From NCBI GenBank assembly GCA_977018835.1, contig OZ361257.1:4898001-4962000 (forward strand): a stretch of 64,000 bases of DNA, written 5' to 3'. This document shows positions 11,526-51,027 of this stretch, piece after piece. The notes under the pieces are model-generated. The model had not been told where the DNA came from. It made no database searches and saw only the letters and a list, made by a program, of their open reading frames with translations. The translations under genes were made by a program, and so were the position numbers. This DNA is from Minutocellus sp. GHC0000111. Taxonomy: Eukaryota. The first letter of the stretch is position 1; each line of letters starts with the position of its first letter.

Positions 11526-12364
11526 TCTACCTATCTTTCTTTTTTTGTGTATTTTCGTGCTGATGAAAAGGGGCCGAAATATTCTTTGCAATGAATGAAT
11601 CGATTCGATTTCGAGGGTTATCCGACGCAATCAATTCAATCTAATCTGAAAGATGAAGCGCTAACGACGAAGTTGGAGTATCAGTGTAAGTTTTCTTCCC
11701 GGATCGTGTAGATCAATATGGATGTTCCGGCAAGAGTTTTTGTCGGTCAAGTTCGATCGATTTCCAATCGAACGCTTTTGCAGGAAAACCAGCGCAAGAT
11801 GTGCCGCCTGCTCGAACAACAAGGCGTTTGTTGAAAGAGCTGAGCGATCAGTCCAACTCAAGGATGAACCATTCCTCTGCACTTGCAGCCCCGGCAAATG
11901 GGATGGCACTTCGTCGAGGTTCTCGTTTCGCTCCTTGCGATTGCGTGCCCAGGCAGCAATGCAACCGATTTGCAACGTGATGGCTTGAAGAGGAGCGTCT
12001 GCGTGTGGGAGAGACCGCAGACTTATCGCGTTGAAACCCAGACGAGTGATCAATGCGATTCAATTATCGGAGGGTTATTATGGGCACAGTTATCCACTGA
12101 TTGCTCTTCGTGCAGATACGCCGTTATCTTGTAACGCCTTCTGCCGATCGGTCGTGGTGAGCAGAGATGCGGACCTGCAGAATGATGAGAAAGATGAACG
12201 GCGACGGAGCAGGGCAGGCCCTTTTGTGTCTTGTTGACGTTGAAAAGAATCAAATCTTCCTTCCCCCGAATGCTTGGGAGATGCACGTCACTCTTTTTTG
12301 ACTCGCTCGACTTCTCTCGCGTTCCTTTTCAAGGGGCTCGATTCACACTCTCCGTGCTCGATTA

Positions 12365-12541
12365 CAGTCTGTTCTCACCTATAAGCAATTGGTAATTGCT
12401 TAGGTGAGGGCTGAGATTCTGAGCATATTGCTTATTCTAAGAGCTAATTGGTACCTCATTCCCATGTTATTCCTTATTCCAAAATAAGCAATTTGAGACC
12501 TCGGGCCCGAGTCTCAATTGCTTATAGGTGAGAACGGACTG
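12365..12541. mobile_element. 177-bp non-autonomous Tc1/mariner-type MITE
   Basis: 27-bp terminal inverted repeats CAGTCYGTTCTCACCTATAAGCAATTG (26/27 match), with TA on both sides (12363-64 and 12542-43); no coding capacity. Confidence 0.9.
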
Positions 12542-13197
12542 TAGAAGGAAGTGAAATGACACGGTCGTCGGCACGGTACGAGCAGTAAAGATAACAAGTT
12601 ACCACTTTTCACCATCAAAGCAAAGTAGAAGAGCTGCAGTATTGCCTGATGATATCAGCACCCAAAAATTTGGCAGAATTGTCGAGTAGAGTCTATTCTC
12701 TGTGGCGACAGCCTAAAAGAACCAAAAAAGTCTTTGTGTGATAGTGTGCCATTAGTTGATATATATCCATTTTGTAGTAGCAGTACTGTACAGAGTAAAA
12801 ACATCCGTCTCCCTCTCTCTTTCTCATTTTTTCGTTTGTTCTTCTTGCTTTGAAAGGCTCCTCCACTTCTTGCTCAGTTGTTCGTCAATGTGCAAGTCCA
12901 AAAGTGGTCAGAGCCCCCCTTCGCCTCGATTGGTCAATCATGTTCAAATGCGCGTGAGTGTGCAGGTGTGTGTGGAATGTCGATGGAGGACTTATCAACG
13001 AAGACAATCCTCGGATGTGTTGTGCGCTGGTATGGTGATGAGATTATGTGATGAAGTGTGCGATGCGTGATGATGGTGTGATAGCGAGCGTTCGTGCGTG
13101 CGTGGTGTTGTGATAGCTTGTGCGTATGGTATTGTTGTTTCCCCTCCCAAAATAATTCTCTAAAGTTATGTCGTAGATAGATAGCTTGAGCTTCGCC

Positions 13198-31181: not shown

Positions 31182-31536
31182 CAGAGGAAACACCGGTAGG
31201 ATGTCAAATTCAGTTCTAGATGTACAGTAGTGCTGTCTTTCTTTATTCATCCAGCGGGCTCTCGGCCATGATTTCCTTGAAAGGGCCATCCCCAAGAAGC
31301 AAAACACTGACCTCCCACAGCCTCCTCGACCACTTTTCATCTGCTTGTCGCAACGCTCTTATTCTTTCTGATCTTTCACTATAACGAACAGGTCGGCCAA
31401 GACCATCAATATGTTGACCCCCCTCTGCATCACCAAGGGCAGCGCACAGCAGCATCTTTGCTCCATCCTCTACTTTTCGCCAGATCATCGGCATCAGGCA
31501 TTCAGATGCCACATGCGCTCCGCCAGGAACGATTAA

Positions 31537-34011
31537 AAACATGCTCTTGAGAGCAGTGTCGGTGTTTCTGCTACCGGCACCGCCAATTCTGGTGGATCGA
31601 CCGAGGAGAATTTGGATGTGCTGCTGGTTGAGGCCGCCGAAGCGCAATGCAAAGCTGCAGAGGAGGCTTTGAAAGGGCTAAGGGACACCTTGAAACGAGA
31701 AAAGCGGAAGGATGAAAAGGCCATGGCCGATGCCGAGAAGAAAAGGAACAAAATGAAGGAGGCGATGCGTCATTTGGAGCAGAGGGTGCAAATGCGTGAA
31801 CATCTTCGGTCGCACAGGATGCCGACGGATGCACCACCCGAACGCAAGAAAGCAATGAGAATGGAAGACAACATGCGACCTGCCATCAGTGCTGGGGAAC
31901 ATGTCCTTGTGTCTGCCGACTTCAGTCCCAACATGAATCGGCCTGAGGGTGAGGGATTTGTCATGGTCAGTCGAGGTGTCGGTGGAGGTGCTCTTTGCGA
32001 TGTCCAGTGTGAGAAGCCTTTTGGTGGCATGATGCATGAGAATGTGCCTCTCAAGGTCATCACCCCGATCCCACTCGGCCTCAATGCCGATTCAATTGCC
32101 AAGGACAGGCGCAAACGGACAGCAGCTGCTCAGGCGGGGATGGACAGTGTTGACAGCGCAGGTGCCAACAAGCGTGCAAAGAGCGATGGCAGTCCGATGG
32201 AGACTCTTGTCGGAAAGCTTTTGCATGGCATGCGACACAGGAAGAAGGATGGACATCTTCGAAAGGAGGCGAATCGAGCAACCAAAGGCAAGAAGGGATT
32301 GAACGACGAGGAGAAGAGCATGCTTTTTGCCCAGGGATTGCTTCTGGAAGTGCATTTGAAGAGCACCGGAGGGACGCAGCACTCAAGCAGGAACAGTTCA
32401 TCGCAGAAGTTTCAGTCGGATGGGAGGGTCACTATTCGTGAGCTCTGCAGAGCGTGGGGGAAGGGTAAGAATGGGCTGCGAGACATCCAGAACGAGTCTC
32501 GGAAGAACGCCATTGCCCGGGGCATGCCAGCAGATCAGGCCGAGCTTGCATTTGTCACCCCCGCTCCCAAGGATTCGTCGGTTCGGCCAAAGTCTACCAT
32601 TGACGATTACAAGACGGCTGAGCAGCACTTCACTGCTAAGCGCCTGTGTGCAATCAATAAGTGCAGAGAGGCAAAGTAAGGCTGCTGTGATTCTGTGTCG
32701 AAGGAGGCTGACAATGAGTTGCTCAAAACGTACCTGACCGAGTACGACACCATCAGCGACGATGACAAGCAGCTGTGGGAGCTGAAGAGGCGGGAGCACT
32801 TGGCAAGGCAGCCGTACATACAGAACGACATTGTTGCGGCCCTTTCCAGCAATCCTCAGCGATCGTTCCGTGGTTTGGAGCAGGACATTGGTCTGTGGTG
32901 CTCGCACAAGACGATTGAGCGGTGGCTCAAGTCATTCGACACCTTCACTTTCTACAAGGAGCGGCTGGTACAGCGCCTGTCAGAGGCTCAAAAAGCTAAG
33001 CATCTGGCCTTTGCTCAGCTCGTGCGGAATTTCTGGAACATTCGGGATGAGAACGGCAATTTACCGAATGGAAAGAAGCGAGTTCTCCTCGTGCATTACG
33101 ATGAGAAATGGTTCTGGGGTCTCGTCCTCCGAGCTTTTGCGAAGGCTTGCGAGGAAATCGGCGTGAAAAAGCGAGATTACGCGGCCTTTCACAGGAGCCA
33201 CATCAACAAGGTCATGGCCATTGCATTTTTTGCCGCTGTCTTTGACGGTTCTCTTGAGAATGGGTGCGAGGTTGTAAAACTGCCACTGGTACGAGCTCAA
33301 GCTCCTAAAATAGCGGAGCGAGCTCAGTGCGAAGCAGTAACACAGCCTGATGGTTCAACACGGCACCCAAATACCAACCCCGATGGGACACCAAAGGAAC
33401 CTCTTCACCGGAAAGGAGAGTCGTTTCTTGTTGATTGTTGCGTTACTGGATCGAACGAAGGCACCAAAAAGGATCCGAAATGCTCTTTGCTCCTCGTATT
33501 CAAGGAGACTATTTTCCCAGCGATTCTCAACCTTGTCGGTCCGGGCAAGCAATACGAAGATTGCCATGTTATTATCCAGGGCGACCAGGCCGGGCCTCAC
33601 GAGGACGGAACCTTCACGCAATTTGTTACTAACTTCTGTGCTGAGCAAGGCTGGACGTGGCAGCCACAGGCACCGCAGATGCCTCACGCCAACGTCCTTG
33701 ACTTGAGCGTGTTCCCCGCGATGAGCCGGCGGCACTCGGAATGGGCACGAAAAATGGTAGGCACCTCCGTCATTTCCACCGACCAGATCTGGGACACTGC
33801 CGAGGACGTTTACGATAGCATGCCTAACTGCAAAATTGCTTCGGCCTTCATTCAGTACTGGAGGATAATGGGCCTGGTGATTAAGGCCGGTGGTAGCAAT
33901 GAGTTTGTTGGAAGGTTGGGTGACGAAAACTTGCACACTGGAATTAGGATCGACTTCAACGAAACGGCCAAGGGGATGGAGCCCTCAGCTCGTCATCCTT
34001 CTAATAAATAG
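31537..34011 (+). mobile_element. Decayed Tc1/mariner-superfamily (plant/oomycete mariner-like) transposase; one reading frame with in-frame TAA at 32677-32679
   Basis: Catalytic motifs HYDEKWF, IQGDQAGPH and QAPQMPHANVLDLSVF (38 residues between the 2nd and 3rd Asp). ORFs 31612..32679 and 32695..34011 are in the same frame. No TIRs found. Confidence 0.85.
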
Positions 34012-34106
34012 ATAGTGTTAATGTCTTTACACATGTATTAAATAAATGTTACACGTCTACAAATTATTTATAGATCTACATGTAAGATGCAGCAGCATTG
34101 GTTTGT

Positions 34107-35243
34107 TTATATCACGGTGGGCTTCTTTGTTCTTCTATTTCTACCGGTATTCTGTTTTGCCTCCTTGGCCTTCTTATGATCATCAGAAAGCCACACAGCG
34201 TGGAGGGACTGACGAATCTTTCCGCGCTTCACACCATATGCATCGGCAAGTTTATTGTCAGTGAGGGCAGGGTGAGCAGTTGGTTGTTTACTCCCATCCT
34301 CATATCCCAACTTATATGCATCTAATGCAATCTTGTCAGTAGATAATGCAATAGAGAATTCTATTGTCTTGTTATCATACAATCCGAGTTCTCTGCTTCT
34401 CCACCCTTTCGGGTAGGCACCACGACCCTCTCTTACTTGGCGATCGACTTCGATCATGCCTAGCACTGTGGTGACCGCGACCTCGCTACCCCAACCAGGA
34501 ACTTGTTTGAAGGGGAGGTAGACCCCTTTCTCTTTTCTTCTTGGTTCGGGCCTCTGACTACATGTGGGTGACTTGTAGTTCTTTATATCTTGTGGTAGTG
34601 GTGCTTCTCCGTACGTCAAAAAGCACGCAAGCCTCCGATGTTCCTCAACCTCTCGTTCAATCTGTCGTTCGGTTGGTTCGGTTGGAGGCAAGGGCTCCAA
34701 GATGGTAGGGGATGACAATTGAAGGTTGCTGAACGACGGGCATGAGCGGCTTGGGGTAAGAGCATACTGAGTATGAACTGACATTGGACTTGTTACCATG
34801 GGCGTGGCGGAGGGAAGGTCGAATGAGCTCACGGGCTTTCTCCTCTCGCCGCTTGGCTTTGCGTCGGCGGTTGCTATGCTCATCTCTGAGAATGAATCAT
34901 CTTCATCAGAATGAGATGAAACGGTAGCGGTACCGCGAAAGTCGGCACGCAATATGTCATGATGCAAGTACTTCCTTGCTTGGGCTTGTTCGGCGGCGAA
35001 GCCATCCTCTTCGTTGTACTCGCGTCGATATTTCAACACACGAGGAGATGTGAGGTCTGACGATGCCGGTGGGACCCCTTGGTTGTCCTCCTTGTCATCG
35101 TTGTCCTTGTTCTCTCGATACCGCGGATGTTCCGGCGTTTCGTTGGAAGTTTCCTTCTCATGGCGCGAGGGGCTGAATGCAGTCGCCTCGGCGCGTTTCG
35201 GTGGACGCGGTGGACTGAAGATGTGTCCCTTTGGAGTATCCAT
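34107..35243 (-). CDS. Uncharacterised protein (~378 aa), convergent with the transposase
   Basis: Long intronless ORF from ATG 35243; S/P-rich N-half; no recognisable motif. Confidence 0.5.
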   Translation of the reverse strand: MDTPKGHIFSPPRPPKRAEATAFSPSRHEKETSNETPEHPRYRENKDNDDKEDNQGVPPASSDLTSPRVLKYRREYNEEDGFAAEQAQARKYLHHDILRADFRGTATVSSHSDEDDSFSEMSIATADAKPSGERRKPVSSFDLPSATPMVTSPMSVHTQYALTPSRSCPSFSNLQLSSPTILEPLPPTEPTERQIEREVEEHRRLACFLTYGEAPLPQDIKNYKSPTCSQRPEPRRKEKGVYLPFKQVPGWGSEVAVTTVLGMIEVDRQVREGRGAYPKGWRSRELGLYDNKTIEFSIALSTDKIALDAYKLGYEDGSKQPTAHPALTDNKLADAYGVKRGKIRQSLHAVWLSDDHKKAKEAKQNTGRNRRTKKPTVI

Positions 35244-35610
35244 GAGTATGGAAGCTTCTTGAAGCGCCAGTCGGCAGAAGTTGCCCAGTCTATTTGTGGT
35301 AATTGCTTGGAGGTCGGTTGTTGACGGGTGTGTTTTGATTTGCTTGCTTTGCCGCGTGTTTTTCAAGGTGCGCGCAAACCGCCGTGTCGGAAAGTCCAAA
35401 GACCCAAAAACCCGGGTCCCCGAAATTGCTGTCCCGGACCTCGTAAGAATGATGAGCTCATTTTTTGAGCCTCCACTGCTGCTGCTGCGCTGCCTCACGC
35501 CCCTCCCTCACGCCCCTGCTTCACTCATCAGGGGATCAGGGGTCGGCGGTCCCTCGTCCCTCGTCCGCTCATACTAGCTAGTAGCAGCGTCACAATCCCA
35601 ACGAATACCG

Positions 35611-38175: not shown

Positions 38176-39064
38176 ATGAAGCTCGCCATTGCTGCCCTTC
38201 TCGCCGGTTCCGCCGCCGCTTTCAACGTCAAGGAGGTAAGATTCTTCGTAGTGAATTGAAGATGTTTCTTTGGTGATCGCGTGGGTGACAACTGGCGGAC
38301 GCATGCGGTGCGCGTGCCTGTCCCGGGGCCCACTTGTGACGTCGGGGATCTTGTTCAGAGGAATTGAGAATTCTGCCATTGTTGACTCCGCCGTCGCGTA
38401 TTTTTGAGCAAGCCACTCACTGAACAGTCTGAATCAAGATGAGGCGCCGAGTTGCTTGCCGGTTGCGTTTGGTACTGGCTCTTTCGACGAACCAGCCGGA
38501 AAAGAACGAACGGGTTATGTTCGTCGTCCCGAAAAGATCCGACGCGTTGAGTCAGCCTCAGTCCGATGGCAGCCTCCAAGATCCACTAATGACCAAGTGG
38601 ATACGCGGTCGGCAGTGATGGTGCGGTGCTGCATGGAGATTCGGCACAACTTGTGGTATTTTCAAAGATATCCTTTTCCATAAATCTCACCTTCTTTCTC
38701 AAATTTCGACGTTCGTCACTCCAAACAACAGGCCGCCCAGGTCGGTGCCGTCTCCGGCGCTCTCGCCTTCGGCATCGCCTCCCCCGCCTTCGCCGGTGAC
38801 GTCGGAGCCGGTGAGCAGGTCTTCAACGCCAACTGCGCCGCTTGCCACGCCGGCGGACAGAACGTCATCATGCCCGAGAAGACCCTCGAGAAGGAGGCCC
38901 TCGACCAGTACCTCGCCGGCGGCCGCAAGGAGTCCTCCGTCGTCACCCAGGTCACCAACGGCAAGAACGCCATGCCCGCCTTCGGTGGACGTCTCTCCGA
39001 CGAGGACATCGCCAACGTCGCCGCCTACGTCATTGCCACCTCCGAGTCCGGCTGGGACGAGTAA
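38176..39064 (+). CDS. petJ: Cytochrome c6 precursor, 2 exons (38176-38235, 38732-39064)
   Basis: [16 protein letters not shown] presequence, lumenal AFA cleavage site, CAACH haem motif, [10 protein letters not shown]; in-phase GT-AG intron 38236-38731. Confidence 0.97.
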
Positions 39065-39889
39065 GCTCGTATGTTTCATGTTGACCGCGCGTTTCATGGC
39101 ATTTGGACGTTGGCGCCGAATAGGCGCTGCATTTCTGAAGCCGAGACCCAACCTACCTACTGCCTTGGGGTTGCTTGTATAGAAGTAGCCTTATCGTAAT
39201 GCATATAGCTACGCTCAAATTTGAACGTTCAAGGGTCTTTCTAGATCTACCTGTATATTTTTACATGTAGATCTAGGGTTGATCGCACCATTGGAAATTG
39301 CCTTCCCTTTTTTACCATTCAACGGCATCACTTCTTCTCTTGGATACCTCTGCTTCGAGAGGCGCAAAGCTGCAAAGCCTCCCACCTAACCAAGGCAATA
39401 GTTGGCCGGAGAAGATCTACATGTACATGTACGTAATTTCTGCTTCACTTTCGCCATCCATGCCTTGCTTGCAACGGGGCGCAGATCGGCCTTGATGACT
39501 GCCTGCTTGCTCGCCGCTGGGCTGTGTCAGAGTTCAGCACGAGCCGGCCGCGCTTTCCTGCCATGCCTGTCAAATTTCACTTTTGCTCGTGAAAATCGTG
39601 CGGATCGACAGTCATGAGATGACGTCGCCATGGGGTTGTGCACCAGAAAACCCGAAGGAGGCACGGTGAATGTTGGAGAAGAATCCAACGCCTCGTTGTC
39701 GAGCCACTCTCTTTCTTCCTAAAGACTTGCTGGCTGTCATCCCATCTGAATAGATTTATTGCACCCAATCTCACCTCTCATGTCATTCTTTCGCACCTTG
39801 GCTTCGCTCAGACTTTCGCAAGACATTAGATTTCGATTCTGCGGAATGTCTCGGACGCATCGAACATCACTTTTGATAATGGACGCGAA

Positions 39890-40245
39890 TGTAGCAAGCG
39901 GCCCAAATCTACCGGGGGGCAGTGCTTTGTCACGCTGCATCGAGGAGCTGGGACCAGATGCTCATTGAAGCACGGGAGAATCCCGCAAGTCTTCTTGCAA
40001 TCGACGAAGCTTCCGGACACACCTCCCTTCACTGTTGTGCCCGCGAACGAGCACCCGACGACATCATCAAAAGCCTCCTGTTATGTCGTTCGAAGAAGCC
40101 CGACGAGCCACATCCATCTCTTGTAGGGAAGGCTCTTGGACGCCGATCCATCTTAGCTGCTGAGCGATTGAGTCTGATGAGACCATTTCAGATAACAAAC
40201 TTTTATCGACATTTGCTCTGGTGCCGGGTCGAGCAGCTCACCTAA
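39890..40245 (+). pseudogene. Degenerate ankyrin-like fragment
   Basis: GHTSLHCCARERAPDDIIKSLL resembles a decayed ankyrin-like unit; no convincing start; lies in non-genic sequence. Confidence 0.35.
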
Positions 40246-40892
40246 AGCTGGACCAACTCATCTGGAGGAAGGAAGAAGGCCGGCCCGGCAATTACAAACA
40301 CACAACATGAAATTTTCCCATGTAATCTTTTGCTTTCTAGACTACGATCTTGCTAGCTATGGATAGATCTCTACTACATTCTATTCTGTTCTCTCTATTC
40401 TATTAGACTACCAAAGTTTATACGGGCATGGGAAAAAGAAGACGAGTCTGGCTTGTCTTCGTGTGATGTGTGTCTGCTAGGCAGTGAGACCGCCCCCGAC
40501 GAGCGTGAAGCTGGAGCCGCGCCCTCCCTTCACGTTGTCGCTCTCGCGACCGAATTGATGGATTTCCGCGGTTCGGTTTAACTATGTCTACCCTGATAGA
40601 TCTCTACTACATGTACCACGTACATGTAGCCAGCCAACAGTTGTCTGACCCGAAAGCAAGCACAGTAAGCACAGGTCGACCATGTACCCGAGTGACAGAC
40701 AGACGATTTCGCCGTCTCTGACGCATCAGTAGCAAGCAGTCAAGTTGACTGGAAGCGGACGAATTAACTGCACACACATGCTGTACCAGCAGAGACAGGT
40801 TCAGGCGCTACGCCAGCCCGTGTGCTTACCGGAGCTGGTTGCATAAGCAGGGAACAAAATCCTTGCAAGGCGTGTTTTCATTAGCGCGAGTT

Positions 40893-43800
40893 ATGGCCAT
40901 TGACCACCGCCATCGATTTCTGCGTCATTGCCTGCAGTCAATTCTCACTCTTTTCGTCGGAATCGCTCAAGCTCCCCCAAACGCTGGTCGAGTACTTGCA
41001 TTCGTCTTTCCCTTTGCATCGCGCCAATCCTCGTTCCTCCCTATGACCGTGTCGCCCTCTGACCTCGATATATCAGCAAGGAGCTCATCTGACCCGCTTC
41101 GACAGTATGTTGCAAGCATAACAAGGGATGCTGGTGGCAACGACGACGTCCAACTTCTTCCATCGGAAGAATTCAGATCGCCGTCTCCATATGCCAACGC
41201 AACTGAAATCAATTCACTGATATTTCGTCCCAAACATAAAGGGGACGCCGAGGGGGTATATGCCGTTGCCATTGTACAAAGTTCCGACAAGGTTGATGTG
41301 ACGAAATTCTCAAAAATACTTTCCAAGGTTGAGGGTAGCATATATGAGAAATGGGAGCTGGCGCCATCCTACCTAGTCGAGGACTTGTGTGGATTTCGAC
41401 CTGGATCAATACCACCAATTGGGTACGCTACAAAACCCTTTCGTGTGATCGTCGATGACTCACTGACGCAATTCAAAGCTGATGCTCTACTTGTTGGCGG
41501 AGGGGGAAGTCTTGACTATCGTTCATAAATAAGAGCAGAAGCATTGGTCGAGGCTGCATCGGCAGAAGTTTCGAGCATCATTGATTCGCGGGAGAGGTTT
41601 GATGGCGAAATGCTGAAGGCTGATGGAAATGCAAATCAAAAGCAGTCATATCAAAAGCCATTCTTCCAAATTGCTCCCCCAAAAGGCAGCCTTGATATGA
41701 ATTCGCAATCAGACGAGCCTCATCGGCCGATACCAGTCACCGCCATCGGGCGAGTCACTTCGGTGAGGCGAATTGCCAAACGGCTCGTCTTTGCCGACTT
41801 TGCTCCTCCAGACTACCCGATGGATCCTTCATTTAGCTCCGCGGAGAAGCAAGCAGAATACGAGAAGGATATGCCGTGGTTGAGTGGCGAAGATGGTTTG
41901 CCCATGTATGTGCAGATGATTGTTGGCAAGACCTTTTGCGATAGCCTCGGAGAAGAAGAGGGACCAGAAGCACTCAAAACACTGAAACCGGGATCATTGG
42001 TGCTTTTTCGAGGCGCAGCAAATGTTGATCCGAGGCAAAAGAATGGATGGAGCAACAGCGCGGGCAACTGGGCGCAGAAACGGTCTTTGGATATTATCGT
42101 GTCGTCATTTGAAATATTGTCTGGGCCTGAGACCACTGAAGATGTATTGAAAGAGCATCACAAAAGCCTCGGTACTTTGCCATGGGAACTGAAACGTAGA
42201 CGCTCAAGTGGTGGTGCGGACCCAATCTCGCTGCCAGCAAAACGAAGCAAAAATCTACCAGCAAAACCAAGCGAAGTAGGCGAAAATGGCCCCATCCTCA
42301 CCCTTGACCTCTTTGATTCAGAGCTACAAGGAAGCCAAACGACAATACTCAACGTCGACACAGTGGACACAGTGAACGAAATGGCAAATAATTTCGAACA
42401 GTTGCTTTCACTTTCCAATTCGGCCGAAGGAGATAACGACCCCCTGGCTTTTGTCCTGGGAATTGATTGTGAGTGGCGTCCTACAGGTGCATTTGGATCA
42501 GACGATTTCGATGGCAACCCAGTCGCGTTGCTGCAGATTAGTGCTCCCGCAATACGAAAGTTGTTCTTGGTAGATACATTCTCCTTGCTCCGCCCTGGCC
42601 TACTTGCAGAAGAAATCATGACCCCAGATGAAAGTATACTTTCCAACGCAATTGCTTCCATATTCAGTGCTCCCAGTTCATTAAAAACCGGCTTCCATGT
42701 CGCGATTGATTTTCGACGGCTAGCAGCAAGCTACCCTCATATTCCTGGCTTTCGTGAAGTGTATTCCGTCGTGGAGCTGTCTCTATTCGCTAAGAGAGTC
42801 CACCCAGGCGAGAGTCGCCACTCTATGGGCTCACTTCAACGCCTGACGCGAATGGTACTTCAACATGATCTATCGAAAGAGCAACAATGCTCTGATTGGG
42901 AACAAAGACCATTGTCACGAGAACAAATTGAATATGCCGCCTTGGATTGCGCTTTGCCAGCGCGGTTACTCGATGTGATGGCCGAGGGGTGCGGAAGATC
43001 AAAAACGGAATCGATTTTGAATCAGTCCACGAGCTCGTGGCGCTTCATCACCGTTGATAGCGACGATCAGAATGCAATCACCTTGCTGAAGGACAAGCGC
43101 GTGGTTGGCAATACGTTTGCGGTCTCCCAAAGTTGGGTGACCGGAAAATCTGCTCCAGAACCACCGTCGATGCCCACAGAAGATGGAGTCTACGTCGATA
43201 AATCAGGGATCAAGCGCATGCCATCTCATTTGCTCAAAATACATCAAGCTGCCGATGACTCTAATATTGTCTGGAACAATATGATAGGAAAAAATGTCGG
43301 CAAAACAAAAGGCAAATGCGTTGAATTGGTCGCGGAGCATGCTCTCCCCGAGCAAACAAAACTAGAATATAACCCTCGAAGCGGCTTTGTCCCATTCAAA
43401 GACGGAATCGTCCTTTTTGTGAACATGCCTGCACCAAATCAGTCCAGACGATCGCCTTATCCAAATGAATGGCTAGAAGATGGAAAGACTCTCACTTGGT
43501 ATCTACACGAAAGGGATTGGAATAATGGCCAATCAGAAACGGCAAGATTGTTGGGATTTGGATCATCGGAGAAGAAAGCTTCGGCGGTATTGTTTGTTCG
43601 ATCTGTTAGTGGCGAATTTATTTGTTGCGGAAAGTGCTCAACTTCCGCTCCCGAGACCGGTTCAGATATTCTCGGAAACAAGAGAAAGAATCTTGTTTTA
43701 CTTCACATTGAGCTCACCCAGTGGGACCTATTCAAAGACTCTCCTGAATTTGTCGACATGCTGAGGATAGCAGCAGACCAAAGCTCGAAAAGTAATGGCG

Positions 43801-44072
43801 AAGCAGAAGATGATGAGGGCGCTCTGATCGATGTGGCGACGGTGACGGATTCTACATCTTTTCAGGAGACACTGGCTCGTATGGTGATAGATGGAAATTT
43901 CATAGATGCCCTTGGGTTTGCCCTCGAGGCGAGTAACACGGATCCAAAGAAACGTTCGATTGCTGCTGGTGTGGGTTGTTTGAAGAATGTTTTCGCTAGA
44001 TCCATGGACAAGGATGTCCTCAAGGCGGTAGAGATTTTGGATGATACTGCGGCTCAGTTGGGTTTATTCTAA
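40893..44072 (+). CDS. YbaK/ProX-like editing domain + OB fold + DEDDy 3'-5' exonuclease + DUF3427-like domain; in-frame TAA at 41526-41528
   Basis: CGFRPGSIPPIG..VGGG (YbaK); GRVTSVRRIAKRLVFADF (OB); LGIDCEW, ALLQIS, QCSDWEQRPLSREQIEYAALD (exonuclease); VLFVN..YPNEW..LTWY..LFVR..FICCG. Both ORFs share one frame. Confidence 0.8.
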
Positions 44073-44096
44073 TACCTCAACGCCTAGAACTAATCC

Positions 44097-44513
44097 TCAT
44101 AGAAGTTCGCCTTGAGGCATGAGGCCGTCTCGGTTGGTAAAAGTAGCATACTTGACAAATGCGGATGGATGTTCATGCTTCCAGTCTCTCCCATAGCGGC
44201 CTGCCTGTTCTTGGACCTTTTCCCACTTCTTTTGAACGCCATTTTTAAGCATTTTTGCCTCAACGACAAGGTATTTATTGCTTCCCGGGACTTTGAAGAC
44301 CATATCCCCAACACCAGACCTTGATCGCCACTCATGAGCCTCGAGCAAGGTGTAGGGATGCGGTGGCGAGTTAATCAAAATGCGATGGAGATCGTCTTCG
44401 TTGCCAGCGTTCTTGGCTTTATTTTGTCCGTAATGGGTGGTAAAGCGCCTGATGGGTATAGTAAACGGTCCGGGACGTCTCCAAAGGACATGGCGTGCCA
44501 TTGAAGGAAACAT
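44097..44513 (-). CDS. Small PD-(D/E)XK nuclease-like protein with possible mitochondrial presequence
   Basis: HEW..GVGDMVF..YLVVEAK..QEQAGRY pattern; Arg-rich N-terminus lacking acidic residues. Confidence 0.55.
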   Translation of the reverse strand: MFPSMARHVLWRRPGPFTIPIRRFTTHYGQNKAKNAGNEDDLHRILINSPPHPYTLLEAHEWRSRSGVGDMVFKVPGSNKYLVVEAKMLKNGVQKKWEKVQEQAGRYGRDWKHEHPSAFVKYATFTNRDGLMPQGELL

Positions 44514-44695
44514 ATTGGTGGTTTTGTACTTCTTTTAGTGCGTCCAAAGAAGCAAGCTGCTGCAAAGATTTATGTCAGTCACAACTTATCATTCAATCCG
44601 ATGACGTTCCAGCCCTTATCTATCCATGGATGTCATTCCTATATTAAAATATTATGTGACCAAAAAGGAAAGGAACTAGAGTAATGATTTCGCCT

Positions 44696-45823
44696 TTAAA
44701 ATATGTTAGAAATAGTTAAACTCCAAAAAACTCGATCGTCAACATGTTTCTCACTTTTCGACTTCGCGCGACCAAATGGAGAGGATACAGAATTCTCTTC
44801 TCTTCCGGAATAATCTCTTATACGAAGGGCTTCCAAATAGGTCTTTTCGAGGTCATGCTCTCTTTCAAAAAACTTATTTCTCTGGAGCCAAATGGGGACA
44901 TCATTGGGCTCAAAGTCTCGCGTGTCATTTTCCACAAGCTTCTCTATCCTACTTACCTTCGACGTCACCGGATTTAAGCTGTTTCTACACTTTCTTCGAC
45001 TTTTATCCTTGTCCTTTCCTACGTCGGCCTCGATCCAAGATTTAGTGCTCCCTTCGAAATCAGGTATGGCAATGCATGCGGCAAACTCTTTGTTCTCGCG
45101 CGTTTTCATGTCAGAACCGAAAAGACCACCCGAAGCAAGACTTCGGGTGGTCTCGTTATCAGGAGGCAACTTCGAAAAGTATAGTCCTCCGAGCAAGTGA
45201 TAATCAGAGTCCGGGAATTGCTCTTCCAATCCATTTTTATGAAGCCAATTCAATGCATCGATGAATGTTGTGCTCATGTGGTAACGCTTGCTGGTGCTAC
45301 GATTATTCAATTCAATTGTCACAACGATTTCGCCTCCCTCCCATAGTCTCAGTCCTTCCTGATCATCAAAGTATAGCTCCCTAGATTGCAGCCAAATCCT
45401 TGCTATTTCTTTTCCTTCACTGTTACAAACAATTTCAGCATCTCTTGCAGCCATTGTGAGGGGGCAATCGTCACCCGACCTTCTTGCAACGCCGCGAACC
45501 GCCGCAAGCAGTCTTTCCATCCCGAAGAATTTCGCTTGAAGTAGGACTGGCAAAGTGAAATCAGACGCCTGAACTTTCCCAAGACGCATAAACGAAAGCA
45601 GAACTTGGAACGGCACGGGATCTTGATCAACAAATACTTCATCGTCCGGACTGTTCGGGCGGTTATTTGCCCACTCTTCAGAAAAAAGACTCTGAAAGTA
45701 TGCGGAGGAACTAGTCAGCGTCGTGATTGAAGTTGAGAATTTTGTCCCCCCGACGTTGAGCAGAACATGGTCAGAATGACGAGCCTTTTTGGCCACGTGG
45801 TTGATGTTATTGCCTTCACTCAT
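44696..45823 (-). CDS. KCTD-type BTB/POZ domain protein
   Basis: LNVGGTKFSTSITTL..YFQSLFS..FVDQDPVPFQVLLSFMR. Confidence 0.85.
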   Translation of the reverse strand: MSEGNNINHVAKKARHSDHVLLNVGGTKFSTSITTLTSSSAYFQSLFSEEWANNRPNSPDDEVFVDQDPVPFQVLLSFMRLGKVQASDFTLPVLLQAKFFGMERLLAAVRGVARRSGDDCPLTMAARDAEIVCNSEGKEIARIWLQSRELYFDDQEGLRLWEGGEIVVTIELNNRSTSKRYHMSTTFIDALNWLHKNGLEEQFPDSDYHLLGGLYFSKLPPDNETTRSLASGGLFGSDMKTRENKEFAACIAIPDFEGSTKSWIEADVGKDKDKSRRKCRNSLNPVTSKVSRIEKLVENDTRDFEPNDVPIWLQRNKFFEREHDLEKTYLEALRIRDYSGREENSVSSPFGRAKSKSEKHVDDRVFWSLTISNIF

Positions 45824-46150
45824 GCTGATGAAGATAGTGATTTACAACGCAGTGTTGATAGCCGCTCAGGAAGGCGGGGAGGGGCGGTTTGACATGTCGC
45901 CAGGCAAAGCTTCCGAAAATGAAAAGCAAAGATACGGATGGAATAGTTTCGTCTGTCCTTCATCAAATAGAGTGTTTCTTTTTGAATCAGACATGACTCA
46001 AAAAGAAATGCTTCAGGCAAAGATACCGATACGTATACGATACCGACACAAGATGTGTTGAATGTGTTGGCATTCGCCCCTCGAAATGGCTAATACAAGT
46101 ACACAAGGGGCTCATGAATAGGAAGGAATCGGCATTGATTAATTTTGACA

Positions 46151-47887
46151 ATGCAAAGACGGCAGCCTCCCTCCCGAACGGTATCGCAGTCGTCGGAGCA
46201 AACCAGTACCAGCCGACGAGAGCAACGTAAGAAGAGGAGAAAGGCAAGGAACGGTGCTCGTAGCGGGTCTGGGGCGGACAATCCTCTCGTATGCTTTTTC
46301 GTCGGCCTTATCGTAATCACCATCATTGTGCTGGTGCTCGGCGTCGGTGTGGCGGTCGGCGTAGTTGGGTCGAACTATTACAGCGACCGGCAAACAGCCA
46401 GAGCATTGCGTACATTTGAAGCCGACAATGCGGTGATCACACAGACGGACAACGTGTTCCCCCCACCATTTCCTGTGGTGTCGACTCAATCCACAACAAC
46501 ATCACTCAGCAAATATGTTCTCGATATGTGCGCCAATACTCTGTGGCATACACTAAAGACCACAACGATTGTTTTGCCTAACGACGAATCGTTCATTCAT
46601 ACTGGAGATATTGATGACCTTTGGCTGCGAGATAGTGCCGGTCAGGTCCATCCACTCCTACTGCCGTGGTTCCCAGGTGGTGCATTGGTCGCACAAGATA
46701 CAAGGCTAGCTCGTGTAGTATCTGGGCTCATTCGTCGGAGTGCATTCTACATCAGGCACGACCCTTATGCGAATGCTTTTCGAATAGATACTTCCTACAT
46801 CTTCAATGAAGAACAAAAACGAATGGGCCGGCACGATTACATTTCGACGTGGAACTACGAGCTCGACAGTGGATGCTATTATATCCGAATGCTTTACTTT
46901 TATTGGAAGGCATTGCCCGACGCACCAATCTTGCGGGAAAAGTCAGTTTTTGAAGCCGTGTCCATCATGGTTGACTTGTGGATTGCCGAACAAGATCATG
47001 AAAATGATGTATACCCCCAAGGAGAGCTGTTTGATTGTCAAAACTGCAAGGGTCCGTTCCGATATCCCGGTCTGCAACGGGGAGGCAAAGGCCGTCCAAC
47101 AAAACGAACCGGCATGACTTGGGCTGGATTTCGACCATCAGACGATGAATGTCAATTTAATTATCTGGTCCCGGCGAATATGTTCGCAGTCGTGGCTCTT
47201 GGCTACGCAACTGAGCTGGCGCAATCACTCTGGGCTGAATACGGCGGAAATGCCTTGGCAGCCAAAGCAGCAAAATTGGCAAGTGAAATCGATCAAGGAA
47301 TCAAAGAATATGGCATCGTGGAGCACGAAATGCATGGGCGAATATATGCATATGAAGTGGATGGCTTGGGCAACTCGCTGTTGATGGACGACGCCAACAT
47401 CCCTTCCCTATTGAGCGCTCCCTATATTGGATACAAATACGACGAAGAAGTTTATGGGAATACCAAGCGCTTCATCTACTCAACAAACAACCCAACATAT
47501 CAATCAGGAACGAATGCATTGACTGGCGAAATTGATGGGTATGGATCGCCACATATGAAGACTGCCATTTGGAAGAATATCTGGCCTATGAGCATGGCGA
47601 TGCGAGGCCTTGTAAGCAATGACATTGACGAAAAGGTTAAGATCATCAATCAACTCCACAAAGCATCTGCCGGGACTGGATGGATGCACGAAAGCTTCGA
47701 TGTAAACAACCCAAAGAAATTTACCCGCCCGTGGTTCTGTTGGAGCGATGCTCTCTTTGCCGAGCTTGTCATGTCTGTGAGTGATCAGTGCCCAGGAGAT
47801 GCACAGTATAAGATCCGATGGTGGCGAGATCCACAGCTGCCAGATGGTGGCAAGTATGCTGGTAGGCAACAAATAAGTAAAGGTTGA
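46151..47887 (+). CDS. Glycoside hydrolase family 125 (exo-alpha-1,6-mannosidase-like), N-terminal TM anchor
   Basis: TGDIDDLWLRDS, YELDS, FRPSDD, YEVDG..MDDANIPSLLS and MHESF..FTRPWF motifs. Confidence 0.9.
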   Translation: MQRRQPPSRTVSQSSEQTSTSRREQRKKRRKARNGARSGSGADNPLVCFFVGLIVITIIVLVLGVGVAVGVVGSNYYSDRQTARALRTFEADNAVITQTDNVFPPPFPVVSTQSTTTSLSKYVLDMCANTLWHTLKTTTIVLPNDESFIHTGDIDDLWLRDSAGQVHPLLLPWFPGGALVAQDTRLARVVSGLIRRSAFYIRHDPYANAFRIDTSYIFNEEQKRMGRHDYISTWNYELDSGCYYIRMLYFYWKALPDAPILREKSVFEAVSIMVDLWIAEQDHENDVYPQGELFDCQNCKGPFRYPGLQRGGKGRPTKRTGMTWAGFRPSDDECQFNYLVPANMFAVVALGYATELAQSLWAEYGGNALAAKAAKLASEIDQGIKEYGIVEHEMHGRIYAYEVDGLGNSLLMDDANIPSLLSAPYIGYKYDEEVYGNTKRFIYSTNNPTYQSGTNALTGEIDGYGSPHMKTAIWKNIWPMSMAMRGLVSNDIDEKVKIINQLHKASAGTGWMHESFDVNNPKKFTRPWFCWSDALFAELVMSVSDQCPGDAQYKIRWWRDPQLPDGGKYAGRQQISKG

Positions 47888-47946
47888 GTTTTGAAGATTT
47901 AGGATTGTACTAGTGTGCACCGCGCGCGGTTGCTTATATACAATGG

Positions 47947-49539
47947 TCACTCATTGGAAGACCTCCTTCCTGCAGACTTGCCCGAAAAGAATAGCGACTT
48001 GATTTTGGCTTCGTTGGGACAGCCGTGAGCGCCATCGAAGTCTTTGCTGCCATCGGCAGCAACACTCCAGTCATAGGCCATGAATTCGATATGAATCTTT
48101 TTGCCCGGCGTAATCATTCGTAAAAGCTTCTGCTTTCTATCCCCGTGCAAATATTTGGCGATGACGTTGGGAAGCTTGCTCTTCGACTCGGCAAAATCAG
48201 CACGGTACCAGTGGAAGATCATGCTCAATAGGAGAATATTCTTCTCCTCGTCCATTTGGACGTTGCCATCGTCGGAAACAAATGCTTGTGCAACGATGTC
48301 GAGCTCCTGATCAATATTTGGCACAGTAAAATCTTTCACTGGCGGACAACTCTTGGCACCGCAATTTAGAGCAAAATGAACACGCGGATCCAAGGGTATG
48401 ACCAGGTCCGCCCGTTTATCACCGCTCTTGAACGGCTTCCTTAGATGATATGGAGGATGTGCATTGCCTCTAAGAATTCCATGCTCGATATCACTGAATG
48501 TCAGCAGAGTACCGCCGATGTTGTAGGACAGACCACTAAAGAAACTGGCACGCTTGAGACTGGTCTTGGGAACGCCAACCTTGATGTACGCATGCTTGAT
48601 CATGAGGTTGTAAATGTTTATAAAGAATGCACGCCGCGCACTCTCACCTACACAGGGCAAACAAATCTCTTGCAGCTCACAAACCTGCTCTTCAAACAAG
48701 AGGTAATGAGGATCGGATTCGATTACTTGATAGTCAATTATGCCTGTCTTTGGAGAGGCGGCACGAGATTCGATCTTGTCCATGAGCTTCTTGAGACGAC
48801 CGATCAAGGCCATAAAATTGGGATCGACGCGATCGGTCCAAACACGGAAAGTGTTGAGGACCGTCGGCTGACGATATGGTTGCAGCCGGTAAAAGTAATT
48901 CGAGTCGCTGAACTCGTGATCACCACACACATGATCCAATAGCTGCGCATTTTGCAGCGTTCGGCCAAGTTCGACTGCCTCTTCGCGCTCTTCAAGGTCA
49001 TAATGGTCCATCAATGCATCAACGCCGTCGCGACCGGTGAAGCAGTCGCGATAGATCTTGGTATGATAGGACAAGTCGCATCGGGGCATGATGATGGTAA
49101 GGATCGATGTCATTTCCAGTATCGATGCCATTTCTTCATCGGGGAGGATGATGGTGTTCTTCGTCTCGTCACGCGGTGGTGCCGGAGGTGGTCCCTTGTT
49201 CTCGCTTGGTTTTGCGGTGGAGGGTGCCAAACGAGGATCGACAGGGCCTGTATTGTTGACTGGCATCAGCGCTATATTGCCGGCATAGTACCTTTCGAGG
49301 CCTCCATTTTCCAGTAGGGCAATCGTTTCGTCGCCACCACCGACATGCTGTCCTTCCACAAACACCTGTGGAACACCATTGCGGCCACACAGAGACACGA
49401 GATCGTAAATCCGCTGGGGATGCCGCTGCAAATCAATGTTCGTATAGACCACATCGTGAGAAGCGAGTGCCGCCTTGAGCTGGCGGCATCTGTCGCATCC
49501 CTCGGCGCTAAAGATGACTACGCCGCTGCTTCCGCTCAT
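47947..49539 (-). CDS. Glutaredoxin + DEP + DUF547 protein
   Basis: CDRC..VPQVFV..HVGG (glutaredoxin); CFTGRDGVDAL..HVC..FYRL (DEP); AFFINIYN..IEHGILR..DPRVHFALNCGAKSCP (DUF547). Confidence 0.88.
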   Translation of the reverse strand: MSGSSGVVIFSAEGCDRCRQLKAALASHDVVYTNIDLQRHPQRIYDLVSLCGRNGVPQVFVEGQHVGGGDETIALLENGGLERYYAGNIALMPVNNTGPVDPRLAPSTAKPSENKGPPPAPPRDETKNTIILPDEEMASILEMTSILTIIMPRCDLSYHTKIYRDCFTGRDGVDALMDHYDLEEREEAVELGRTLQNAQLLDHVCGDHEFSDSNYFYRLQPYRQPTVLNTFRVWTDRVDPNFMALIGRLKKLMDKIESRAASPKTGIIDYQVIESDPHYLLFEEQVCELQEICLPCVGESARRAFFINIYNLMIKHAYIKVGVPKTSLKRASFFSGLSYNIGGTLLTFSDIEHGILRGNAHPPYHLRKPFKSGDKRADLVIPLDPRVHFALNCGAKSCPPVKDFTVPNIDQELDIVAQAFVSDDGNVQMDEEKNILLLSMIFHWYRADFAESKSKLPNVIAKYLHGDRKQKLLRMITPGKKIHIEFMAYDWSVAADGSKDFDGAHGCPNEAKIKSLFFSGKSAGRRSSNE

Positions 49540-49785
49540 GGTACGCCCTTACTGGTACGATGCAACAACTCTTCGAGAGCGCGCCACTATCGGCGATGTT
49601 TTGATGACTTCGCCGACTTCCACTGACGCAGTAGCGACTGCATGCACACATCTTGTGCATCTTTTCAGATACGGTGGTCAATTGCGGTGGTCGCTTGTTC
49701 TGGTTGACTTTAGTTGTTGTTCAGGCCAAGCTGTGCGAAATTTGCCTTTCACCTCTTCAATAAGCAAATTTTGATTGCGAAAGCC

Positions 49786-51027
49786 ATGTCTCCCAACTCC
49801 TCACCGAAACGAAAGGCAGCCTTCGCCGCGGGGTCCATTCTCCTTGGCCTCGTGGCATTCAAAAAGGTGAACGAAGTCAGCGGTCCTGCGTTCGAGCCTA
49901 TATTGGAGGTTTGCACCGACACAACAATTGCGCCTACAGAATTTGTCGCAAAGACGGGTTATCATGAATACGATGCTGCCGTGGGCTTCAAGCTGTTCAA
50001 TGTGCTGGTGTGTCTCATTACACAGTTTTTGTTCGAATTGAGAAACACCTACCCGGAGGGATTATTGACGTGGTGTGGCTTGATGGTGGTGGCTCTTCCG
50101 TTTGGGATTGTCTCGTCTTTGGAATCGGGACGGGCTGGTGTCAAGGGATTGCTCCGCTATCCCGTTTTCATTGGATTGCTGTATCAGCTCTTTGGCATCA
50201 GTGTCATGGCCCCCCTCGTGTGGTTCCCGGCGTATGTTTACGGAGCCGGTGATGGCTGCATTTCGACGTTCCGAACCCGTCTCGCTGTGCCGCTGAACGC
50301 TCCCGGGCCCATCATTACCATAATTGTATTTGTGGTCGACACCGCCTCTAAGTTATGGACTACCTGCGCTGGCATCTTGGGAGGACCAGGCCTTCCCATG
50401 CTGGGTCTGGTTTATTGGGCCGATAGTATCCCCGCCACCGGTAAAGACAATACGTACAAGTCTCGTATCGATTCCGCCAAGAGAGCTGCATTTGCGCTCC
50501 GATCCATGGTGGCCGTTGCGTTTGCTGCTTGGTACGTCTTGGTTTACATTGCCTACAATAAATATGGATTTGATTTACCAGCTCTCTGGAAAGGGGTATG
50601 GACCGACGCCAATGGAAGCGTTGCGTTCATGACTGTCGACACAATTGTGCTGTTCTTGGCGGTCATCATTTATATCGCGTATCGGGACGAAAAGGCATAC
50701 CTCAAGGCACTTAGTCTGACGCCACTCCTTGGGCCCGGGGCAGCTTGTTCCCTCGTTCTGGCAGATATTGAGATGAATGAAGCTGTTGCATCATTTCAAA
50801 AGAAGGGTTCGTTTAAAATTAGTTTACCCATTATTGTGCGCTCACCACTTCGGTTGCTGAAGAGATGCAATGTTTCCAACAGATCATCGAGTCTTGTTAC
50901 CTCCTTCTCAACCTGTTTGTCGTATGCAGAAGCACTGTGCCCAACATTGCACTTGAGAGTAAGGACAAACATTGCCGTCGGGCTCAATATTCCAGCGTCT
51001 CGAGCTTTCAATAGCCAATCCACCTGA
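49786..51027 (+). CDS. Uncharacterised multi-pass membrane protein; true 3' end uncertain
   Basis: Several hydrophobic helices; the last ~230 bp overlap the convergent gene. Confidence 0.6.
   Translation: MSPNSSPKRKAAFAAGSILLGLVAFKKVNEVSGPAFEPILEVCTDTTIAPTEFVAKTGYHEYDAAVGFKLFNVLVCLITQFLFELRNTYPEGLLTWCGLMVVALPFGIVSSLESGRAGVKGLLRYPVFIGLLYQLFGISVMAPLVWFPAYVYGAGDGCISTFRTRLAVPLNAPGPIITIIVFVVDTASKLWTTCAGILGGPGLPMLGLVYWADSIPATGKDNTYKSRIDSAKRAAFALRSMVAVAFAAWYVLVYIAYNKYGFDLPALWKGVWTDANGSVAFMTVDTIVLFLAVIIYIAYRDEKAYLKALSLTPLLGPGAACSLVLADIEMNEAVASFQKKGSFKISLPIIVRSPLRLLKRCNVSNRSSSLVTSFSTCLSYAEALCPTLHLRVRTNIAVGLNIPASRAFNSQST

Follow-up and report, generated by a model that had tools for sequence, protein, structure and literature searches.

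TpA-directed A>G hypermutation of copies of a Tc1/mariner-type DNA transposon

Main finding

Copies of a Tc1/mariner-type DNA transposon are almost certainly subject to TpA-directed A>G hypermutation. The changes run in one direction and share one sequence context, fall on both strands, recur in different copies, occur in two transposon families, exceed those found in host genes and are biased towards the front part of the element. The signal had been picked up in the initial annotation of this DNA as a transposase gene stripped of TA dinucleotides, where it was read as the trace of a RIP-like defence against transposons.

The TA-free run and the element that carries it

The window (the whole 64-kb stretch of DNA that was analysed) contains the element and its flanks, and the features discussed here are collected in Table 1. 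The compositional observations of the initial annotation, namely a TA-free stretch of 752 bp, no other TA-free run longer than about 300 bp, CpG that stays common and host genes that keep their TA, were all borne out. TA dinucleotides occur at 31679 and then at 32433, the two longest gaps elsewhere in the window measure 307 and 286 bases, and the observed/expected ratio of CpG in 31554–32700 is 0.77, while that of TpA is 0.16, compared with 0.57 for the whole window. In 14 host open reading frames the longest TA gap per frame ranges only from 94 to 196 bases, and 700-bp TA-free runs are therefore not a feature of these ordinary genes. Chance is excluded as the origin of the run, as about 1.6e-8 such runs are expected at the TA rate of the window. 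Synonymous-codon resampling of the present, Tyr-free protein yields a mean of 20 TA and reaches zero TA in 0 of 20000 draws, and the run is thus not due to amino-acid content. A sister element (L001) has 19 TA in the stretch aligned to 31681–32432. A sequencing artefact was ruled out, since the variants are carried by contigs of the Illumina RNA runs X4 and X6.

Table 1. Features of the transposon copy, with positions in the window
Feature	Position	Strand	Remarks
Tc1/mariner-type DNA transposon copy, high-copy, 5'-truncated	31554..35443	+	depth ~100-fold over flanks; loose ends 31554 and 35445
Transposase gene remnant	31554..34011	+	N-terminal accessory part, HTH (PF01498), catalytic D522-D683-D722 (D38D)
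RTAY-free run	31410..32731	.	1321 bases; longest of the window; surviving internal TA all non-RTAY
TA-free run	31681..32432	.	752 bases
Private premature stop	32677..32679	+	GAA>TAA; Glu in 12/12 copies
RTAY-site cluster, more often mutated in internally deleted than in full-length copies	33290..33373	.	27/73 vs 12/114
ORF2, convergent cargo ORF inside the element, 378 aa	34107..35243	-	weakly TA-mutated across copies
Right terminal inverted repeat	35401..35443	.	~43 bases; inner limit borrowed from sister element
TA target site, retained	35444..35445	.	directly after the right terminal inverted repeat

The copy in the window lacks the left terminal inverted repeat and about 190 N-terminal codons (a full-length copy is P0102), and its left end was likely lost together with the adjoining flank. 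The frames 31537–32679 and 32680–34011 constitute one transposase of about 1000 aa (999 aa in P0102). The initial annotation had described a 355-aa open reading frame with about 17 Met and one Tyr; the composition stands (17 Met, 11 His, 6 Cys and a single Tyr in the stretch starting at 31612), but the separate reading frame does not, being the middle of this larger protein. The PF01498 profile scores above the cutoff in P0102 and in the sister protein P0143, and below it (E 1.9e-6) in the window fragment. The spacing between the second and third catalytic Asp is 38 residues in all five proteins checked, with the residue numbers in Table 1 referring to the read-through protein P0003. The stop at 32677 is a transversion and is separate from the TA process. 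One relative of the transposase is named from Cylindrotheca closterium. ORF2 has no match to Pfam profiles, and L001 lacks it.

L001 is complete, with inverted repeats at both ends and TA on either side, and the right end of the window copy resembles the end of L001 (85% over 62 bases); terminal inverted repeats and a TA target site are thus seen at the right end here and at both ends in the sister. Contig depth rises about 100-fold across 31554–35445, a depth that is not a copy number. In runs X1 and X2 an allele joins 31555 to 35444 through other sequence, and therefore the insertion is polymorphic. The family is abundant and still mobile. A common deleted derivative is devoid of 31757–33045, a segment of lower depth, and open frames of 660–999 aa persist among the copy proteins with heavy mutation loads.

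Substitution spectrum and flanking context

Copies of the transposase were compared for 76 of 224 clustered protein copies, one of them unalignable; as the copies are seen as proteins, only amino-acid-changing events count, synonymous ones are invisible, and the copies are not independent. The spectrum covers codons 506–821 and is polarised on family-majority states, given that polarisation by the sister protein mis-assigns codons such as 35, 63, 309 and 658. Within this scope, T[A>G] accounts for 129 of 2125 copy-sites and affects 22 of 39 sites (p=5e-14 by sites), whereas A>G after other bases is limited to 24 of 14821 copy-sites (A[A>G] 15/5162, C[A>G] 7/4397, G[A>G] 2/5262). The remaining classes are similarly rare, with [C>T]G at 8/3702, other C>T at 30/12082 and transversions at 65/79828. 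The same contrast is found in ORF2 (63 of ~221 copies), where T[A>G] reaches 42/2443 as against 9/13140 for other A>G (A[A>G] 1/4208), together with a mild excess of CpG changes (8/3807 vs 10/12301). Both products, TpG and CpA, are on record, as Cys and His at the same Tyr sites and as TG/CA doublets. The tabulation by context across copies thus yields the large excess of TA>TG and TA>CA that the initial annotation had predicted, and its central claim, a strand-symmetric A>G change in TpA acting on transposon copies, is upheld, Tyr being the sister state at the affected sites.

The motif on each strand is TAY. In codons 506–821, changes were found at 21 of 26 TAY sites and at 1 of 13 TAR sites (p=1.7e-5), a contrast that is weaker in ORF2 (35/1667 vs 7/776 copy-sites). 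Among sites that are still TA in the window, to which the four-base counts are restricted, those variable among copies comprise 10 of 10 RTAY, 6 of 14 YTAY, 3 of 9 RTAR and 0 of 8 YTAR; the mis-polarised sites 31722, 31754, 32472, 33722, 33837 and 33891 are left out, and site 33338, the source of 25 of 28 apparent RTAR events, is RTAY in the family majority. The ADAR-type context TAG is cold, with 0/217 changes in codons 506–821 and 2/481 in ORF2.

Ancestral states

The direction of change is supported by the sister element, which shares 72% DNA identity with the window copy. Of 35 TA dinucleotides of L001 aligned to 31554–32700, the window copy keeps 2 and carries CA at 13 and TG at 9, while the other dinucleotides of L001 are kept at 39–60% in the same alignment (p=3e-8 vs TA); in the rear part, it retains 16 of 39 TA. 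Across copies, Cys and His replace Tyr, Met and Thr replace Ile, and Ala takes the place of both Val and Thr. Ten residues of the window copy are former Tyr (C38, H122, C158, H234, H240, H364, C371, C384, C598 and H610), and P0143 has Tyr at nine of these positions and Phe at position 38, where L001 reads TAC. Tyr is therefore the sister state at the hot sites, as was expected from the initial annotation, which had flagged Cys and His residues as former Tyr and Met residues as former ATA codons. This reading stands for the ten positions above, but three of the flagged residues are ancestral (in ALCDVQCEK the first Cys, in AINKCREA the Cys and in GMMHENV the His), and the His of EPLHRK did not come from Tyr, since Arg occupies this position in 56 of 56 copies and the change is CG>CA. 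For Met, an origin from ATA is clear at M330 (Ile 2, Thr 5, Met 3), while most of the 17 Met residues are found in all or nearly all copies.

Differences between the window and other strains or copies were considered at the DNA level for the best 40 of 60, of which 31 lie in the element and represent 26 events: 5 TG/CA doublets, 10 TA lost here, 1 TA kept here, 2 CG>CA and 8 others. TA ranks third by depth at four of the five doublets, and CG is the L001 state at none of them; therefore CpG decay is not their source. The doublet at 31686 is itself ambiguous between a TA and a CG origin.

Recurrence and position within the element

TG and CA products recur at identical sites among copies, and allele pairs incompatible with a single tree make up 36 of 99 in the front part and 45 of 62 in the rear, which together indicates repeated independent hits or gene conversion. 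The initial annotation had described the loss of TA as total in the 5' part and partial over the catalytic domain, and the copies agree. In 14 copies spanning both parts, RTAY Tyr or Ile sites are changed at 40 of 68 in the front and 12 of 96 in the rear (p=6e-10), a TA change in the front part that is about fivefold that of the catalytic part of the same copies. Non-TA amino-acid differences, at 29/3428 and 31/5558, differ 1.5-fold (p=0.11). Synonymous TA are likewise gone in the front and kept in the rear.

The six sites at 33290–33372 are more often changed in deleted copies than in full-length ones (per-copy p=6.5e-4; counts in Table 1), with an equal non-TA background in both, and this contrast becomes weaker when identical haplotypes are collapsed (18/54 vs 6/30). 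Position and lineage selection, which are not fully separated, may both underlie the gradient. T[A>G] is lower still in ORF2, falling from 0.061 in the catalytic region to 0.017, but this fall is not read as positional because the transversion background drops too, from 0.0008 to 0.0003. The segment 31757–33045 is among the most mutated parts; since the commoner deleted derivative lacks it and its depth is lower, this does not point to copy dose. No strand-coordinated clusters were found among 165 adjacent pairs, of which 74 are on the same strand as against 79 expected (a count that takes in two mis-polarised columns). Summed by hand over 13 RTAY Tyr sites, His reaches 74 and Cys 53; with His no rarer than Cys, there is no coding-strand A>G excess of the simple R-loop kind.

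Other transposons, host genes and flanks

The signature extends to a second transposon family, 46% identical to the first and found on contigs of identical lengths, in which the commonest changes among 31 of 204 proteins are Y>H (21), Y>C (15) and I>M (15). No Tyr>His or Tyr>Cys changes were seen in the clusters of P0010 (10 proteins) and P0143 (7 proteins), which likely come from other organisms, and among 32 metagenome loci of related transposases no TA gap exceeds 250 and no TpA observed/expected ratio lies below 0.43; both sets consist mostly of short metagenome assemblies that may hide minority variants.

Within the window, TA-type events make up 16 of 26 in the element and 6 of 39 in host genes (p=1.7e-4; differences from other strains and copies), with the host control comprising the best 40 of 366 differences, all within 40838–42345. 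The host TA-type events run in both directions. An exception to clean targeting is the left flank, in which 4 of 6 differences, on the allele without this insertion, are TA-type. A short MITE at 12363–12543 retains its TA sites. The hypermutation is likely aimed at mobile DNA.

Among the host genes, a nuclear cytochrome c6 gene lies at approximately 38176–39064 and encodes a signal peptide ending in AAAF, an ending that diatom plastid proteins typically have. Among solved structures, its best relative is 3dmi from Phaeodactylum (168 bits; the next reaches 118). With this gene and the transposase relative from Cylindrotheca closterium, the host is likely a diatom.

Possible mechanism and its alternatives

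The explanation that we regard as best, with a probability of roughly one half, is that a predicted TadA/ADAT-like DNA adenine deaminase of the host changes TAY adenines on mobile or foreign DNA. The adenine of 5'-TAY-3' has been turned into guanine on both DNA strands of transposon copies, and this by a process that likely originates from the host and likely is aimed at mobile or foreign DNA, hitting copy by copy, probably after insertion. The predicted enzyme would convert DNA adenine to inosine, which would be read as G at replication and give TA>TG, or TA>CA via the other strand. Palindromic RTAY sites, being hot on both strands, would be lost first. The process may be guided by chromatin, small RNA or transcription. 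As each TA can be changed only once, the process erases its own substrate, and none of the TA>TG/CA changes leads from a sense codon to a stop; the process is thus a missense-only and self-limiting mutagen. A feature that argues against a deaminase is the absence of strand-coordinated clusters, which a processive single-strand DNA deaminase would leave within one episode.

The claim of the initial annotation that the process inactivates transposons is not supported, in view of the absence of stop routes, the persistence of long open frames and the polymorphic insertion. A role in defence is possible but unproven, as the process generates no stop codons, the family remains abundant and mobile, and the short MITE keeps its TA. 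The initial annotation also expected TA target sites to be erased, but the element's own TA at 35444 is intact. A bolder and, as a whole, tentative proposal is that a diatom DNA adenine editor, shared across SAR with Bigelowiella, is recruited to the front zone of the transposon and rewrites TAY on both strands, and that an internal deletion bringing the catalytic-region sites 1.3 kb nearer to the left end makes them mutate roughly three times as often. If this is true, targeting would be positional and not homology-driven.

The main rival to the deaminase, possible though rather unlikely, is a chromatin-guided enzyme that modifies T or A at TpA, preferably in RTAY, in silenced mobile DNA, with mutation as a by-product of the mark via miscoding or deamination, comparable to CpG decay from 5mC. 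The symmetric hierarchy of sites (RTAY > YTAY/RTAR > YTAR), the change of both strands without strand-coordinated clusters and the regional gradient within copies are all consistent with such a mark, and the preference for RTAY palindromes would be explained just as well by a base modification on both strands of duplex DNA. Against such a mark, one specific to TpA is not known. Eukaryotic 6mA (AMT1) sits at ApT near active gene starts, with neither transposon enrichment nor ApT depletion, and Phaeodactylum has 5mC only (10.1101/2024.10.28.620566). In Bigelowiella the process was on in only 11 of 15 lines (10.64898/2026.01.13.699255). Also improbable is an origin of the A>G changes at WA sites from error-prone replication of transposon chromatin, either by synthesis of the Pol eta type or through weak mismatch repair. 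Pol eta makes A:T>G:C changes at WA with a preference for TA, and within the catalytic region A[A>G] ranks second among the A>G classes. However, the rate at AA (15/5162) is not near that at TA (129/2125), the difference being about 20-fold and also marked in ORF2 (1/4208 vs 42/2443), whereas the WA motif predicts a far smaller gap and no strict 3' pyrimidine rule.

Two further explanations dispense with a targeted adenine mutagen. GC-biased gene conversion between copies, or the purging of lineages mutated in the catalytic domain, could be invoked since mutation is heaviest in the N-terminus, which is poorly conserved, deleted copies that are non-autonomous are more changed at the same catalytic-region sites, and homoplasy could stem from conversion. 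As a complete account this is very improbable, because conversion would favour every AT>GC change, whereas A>G outside TA does not rise above background. In addition, the front part exceeds the rear only 1.5-fold in non-TA amino-acid differences (p=0.11), and synonymous TA are gone there and kept behind; selection or conversion may account for part of the gradient, not for the signature. Ordinary 5mC decay at CpG, through DNMT5-type transposon methylation, would explain TG versus CA doublets at five sites equally well if CG were ancestral, and the two private CG>CA changes of the window copy and the mild CpG excess in ORF2 (8/3807 vs 10/12301) are of this type; moreover, DNMT5a controls diatom transposons (PMC9998398). 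As the main cause it is scarcely credible and is refuted by the TA ancestral states (TA as third state at 4/5 doublets, CG at none in L001, Tyr as the sister residue) and by CpG that is not depleted (observed/expected 0.77 vs 0.16 for TpA), with [C>T]G about 28-fold below T[A>G].

Significance

The known mutational repeat defences, RIP, APOBEC and 5mC decay, all act on cytosine. For a process directed at adenine in genomic DNA, the searchable literature offers a single precedent, a preprint without an enzyme. What is added here is a young family whose copies are only partly mutated, together with polarised counts by copy, the TAY rule and the gradient along the element. These numerous young copies, from a second group of hosts, provide a quantitative fingerprint of the process, comprising TAY per strand, hot and cold sites and the gradient, and the transposon may serve as a ready reporter on the way to the enzyme in genetically tractable diatoms. 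At TA sites, consensus sequences and age estimates of diatom transposons are biased as a consequence. The base-editing field, too, would take an interest in a natural DNA adenine deaminase, as the adenine editors used there were evolved from an RNA enzyme.

Comparison with known systems

Among named transposon families, the nearest by features is PlantMar (DD39D), with which (PMC7325037) the element shares HTH_Tnp_Tc3_2, a DDD triad, short terminal inverted repeats and a TA target. It differs from PlantMar in its D38D spacing, its long N-terminal extension and its convergent cargo ORF, and membership was rejected, since the spacing is 38 and not 39 in five of five proteins.

The process resembles RIP of Neurospora and other ascomycetes in its dinucleotide-specific transitions on both strands, concentrated on repeats. 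RIP prefers CpA>TpA, responds to repeat homology, acts before meiosis and depends on RID. It is a C>T change that creates TpA and stops, whereas the process observed here destroys TpA and makes no stops; [C>T]A is found at 2/3715 copy-sites and TpA is depleted. The description as RIP-like given in the initial annotation therefore does not hold in a strict sense, the polarity being opposite and a part missing from the commoner deleted derivative being among the most mutated. The A-to-I chemistry of TadA/ADAT2-3 and ADAR gives A>G, and a 3' C, as in the TadA motif, agrees with the preference for TAC seen here, with 5'ACG listed for TadA/ADAT2 and 5'UAG for ADAR1/2 in a table of PMC10661471; these enzymes naturally act on RNA, however, and the ADAR-type TAG is cold here.

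No paper on a TA-erasing process in diatoms was found by a search with most subscription journals outside its reach; the main text of a Tree-of-Life mutation preprint (10.64898/2025.12.28.691837) does not contain diatom, alga, adenine, transpos- or protist, and the available part of the Prasinoderma paper (PMC11884799) does not mention TpA. The initial annotation knew of no characterised mechanism, but the same spectrum has been described, likewise without an enzyme, by Mettrop et al. (10.64898/2026.01.13.699255) for a distantly related alga, Bigelowiella natans, in which hypermutation of integrated DNA of NCLDV and virophages is restricted to TpA. Two viral inserts had acquired 231 new mutations, and 230 of these were A>G or T>C, every one at TpA; the rate was about 1000-fold that of the genome. 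DDE-endonuclease and reverse-transcriptase domains were enriched among TpA-poor coding sequences, and an ADAT2-like enzyme was proposed as a candidate by prediction only (10.64898/2026.01.13.699255). The main text of the preprint mentions neither diatoms nor the words 'context' and 'trinucleotide' and gives no flank context, which its figures or supplement may hold; the TAY/RTAY flank rule and the within-element gradient are seen here. The two cases also differ in host, here a likely diatom, in target, mainly a single-copy silent viral insert there and a multi-copy, still mobile DNA transposon here, and in evidence, mutation accumulation there and copy comparison here. They are alike in that A>G or T>C at TpA gives TpG and CpA and that foreign or mobile DNA is hit. 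Features of the Bigelowiella process that are found in the present element are transitions concentrated at TpA, on both strands, and in mobile DNA over host genes (16/26 vs 6/39, from 40 of 366 host differences, and with the left flank as exception). The signature is the same as that of Bigelowiella natans, and the two may possibly represent the same system.

TA-poor tracts and host haplotypes

The second-longest run in the window that is free of RTAY, the TA context hit hardest by the A>G process, extends over 991 bases (39430-40421). TpA obs/exp is 0.23 over 39434-40080, no ORF longer than 120 aa is found in the run, and it is likely an older, mutated relic of mobile or foreign origin. TA-poor DNA (obs/exp 0.24) also adjoins the MITE-like element, at 11717-12363; the element itself retains its TA sites, RTAY among them. 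A recurrent palindromic motif resembling AGATCTACATGTA, intergenic and close to gene ends, is rich in RTAY yet free of mutation.

In the left flank of the main element (31253-31553), comparison with the X1 allele gives six differences, four of which set CA/TG against TA, and the window state also occurs on an allele in X2 that lacks the insertion; this flank is possibly a decayed gene or else a separate target. Host haplotypes diverge strongly: X1 carries 53 differences across the 617 bases of 42062-42678, and in X2 and X7 depth falls to roughly half over the 7-kb stretch 43215-50213, where a loose end at 43244 is also present, which suggests a hemizygous block.

Features of the window and of the sister element
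Feature	Location	Strand	Details
AGATCTACATGTA-like motif	window 39241-39276, 39413-39431, 40598-40629, 34065-34085		
MITE-like element	window 12363-12543		29-base inverted ends, beginning TA-CAGT
Cargo ORF2	window 34107-35243	minus	378 aa
Sister element, complete	L001 82-3791		~3.7 kb; both TIRs and TA flanks

Transposase, cargo and sister element

The N-terminus of the full-length transposase copy P0102 includes a beta-rich segment (residues ~290-350; window ~31880-32070), which is conserved in P0010, a 55% relative, and by eye appears SH3/Tudor-like, with no match in Pfam. Copies of ORF2 are 99% identical to one another; one relative elsewhere (42%) shares a conserved C-terminal domain with it, and a Pfam search gave no match. 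The sister element lacks ORF2; its transposase frame is open and the TA content of the element is normal. It is unmutated and useful as an outgroup.
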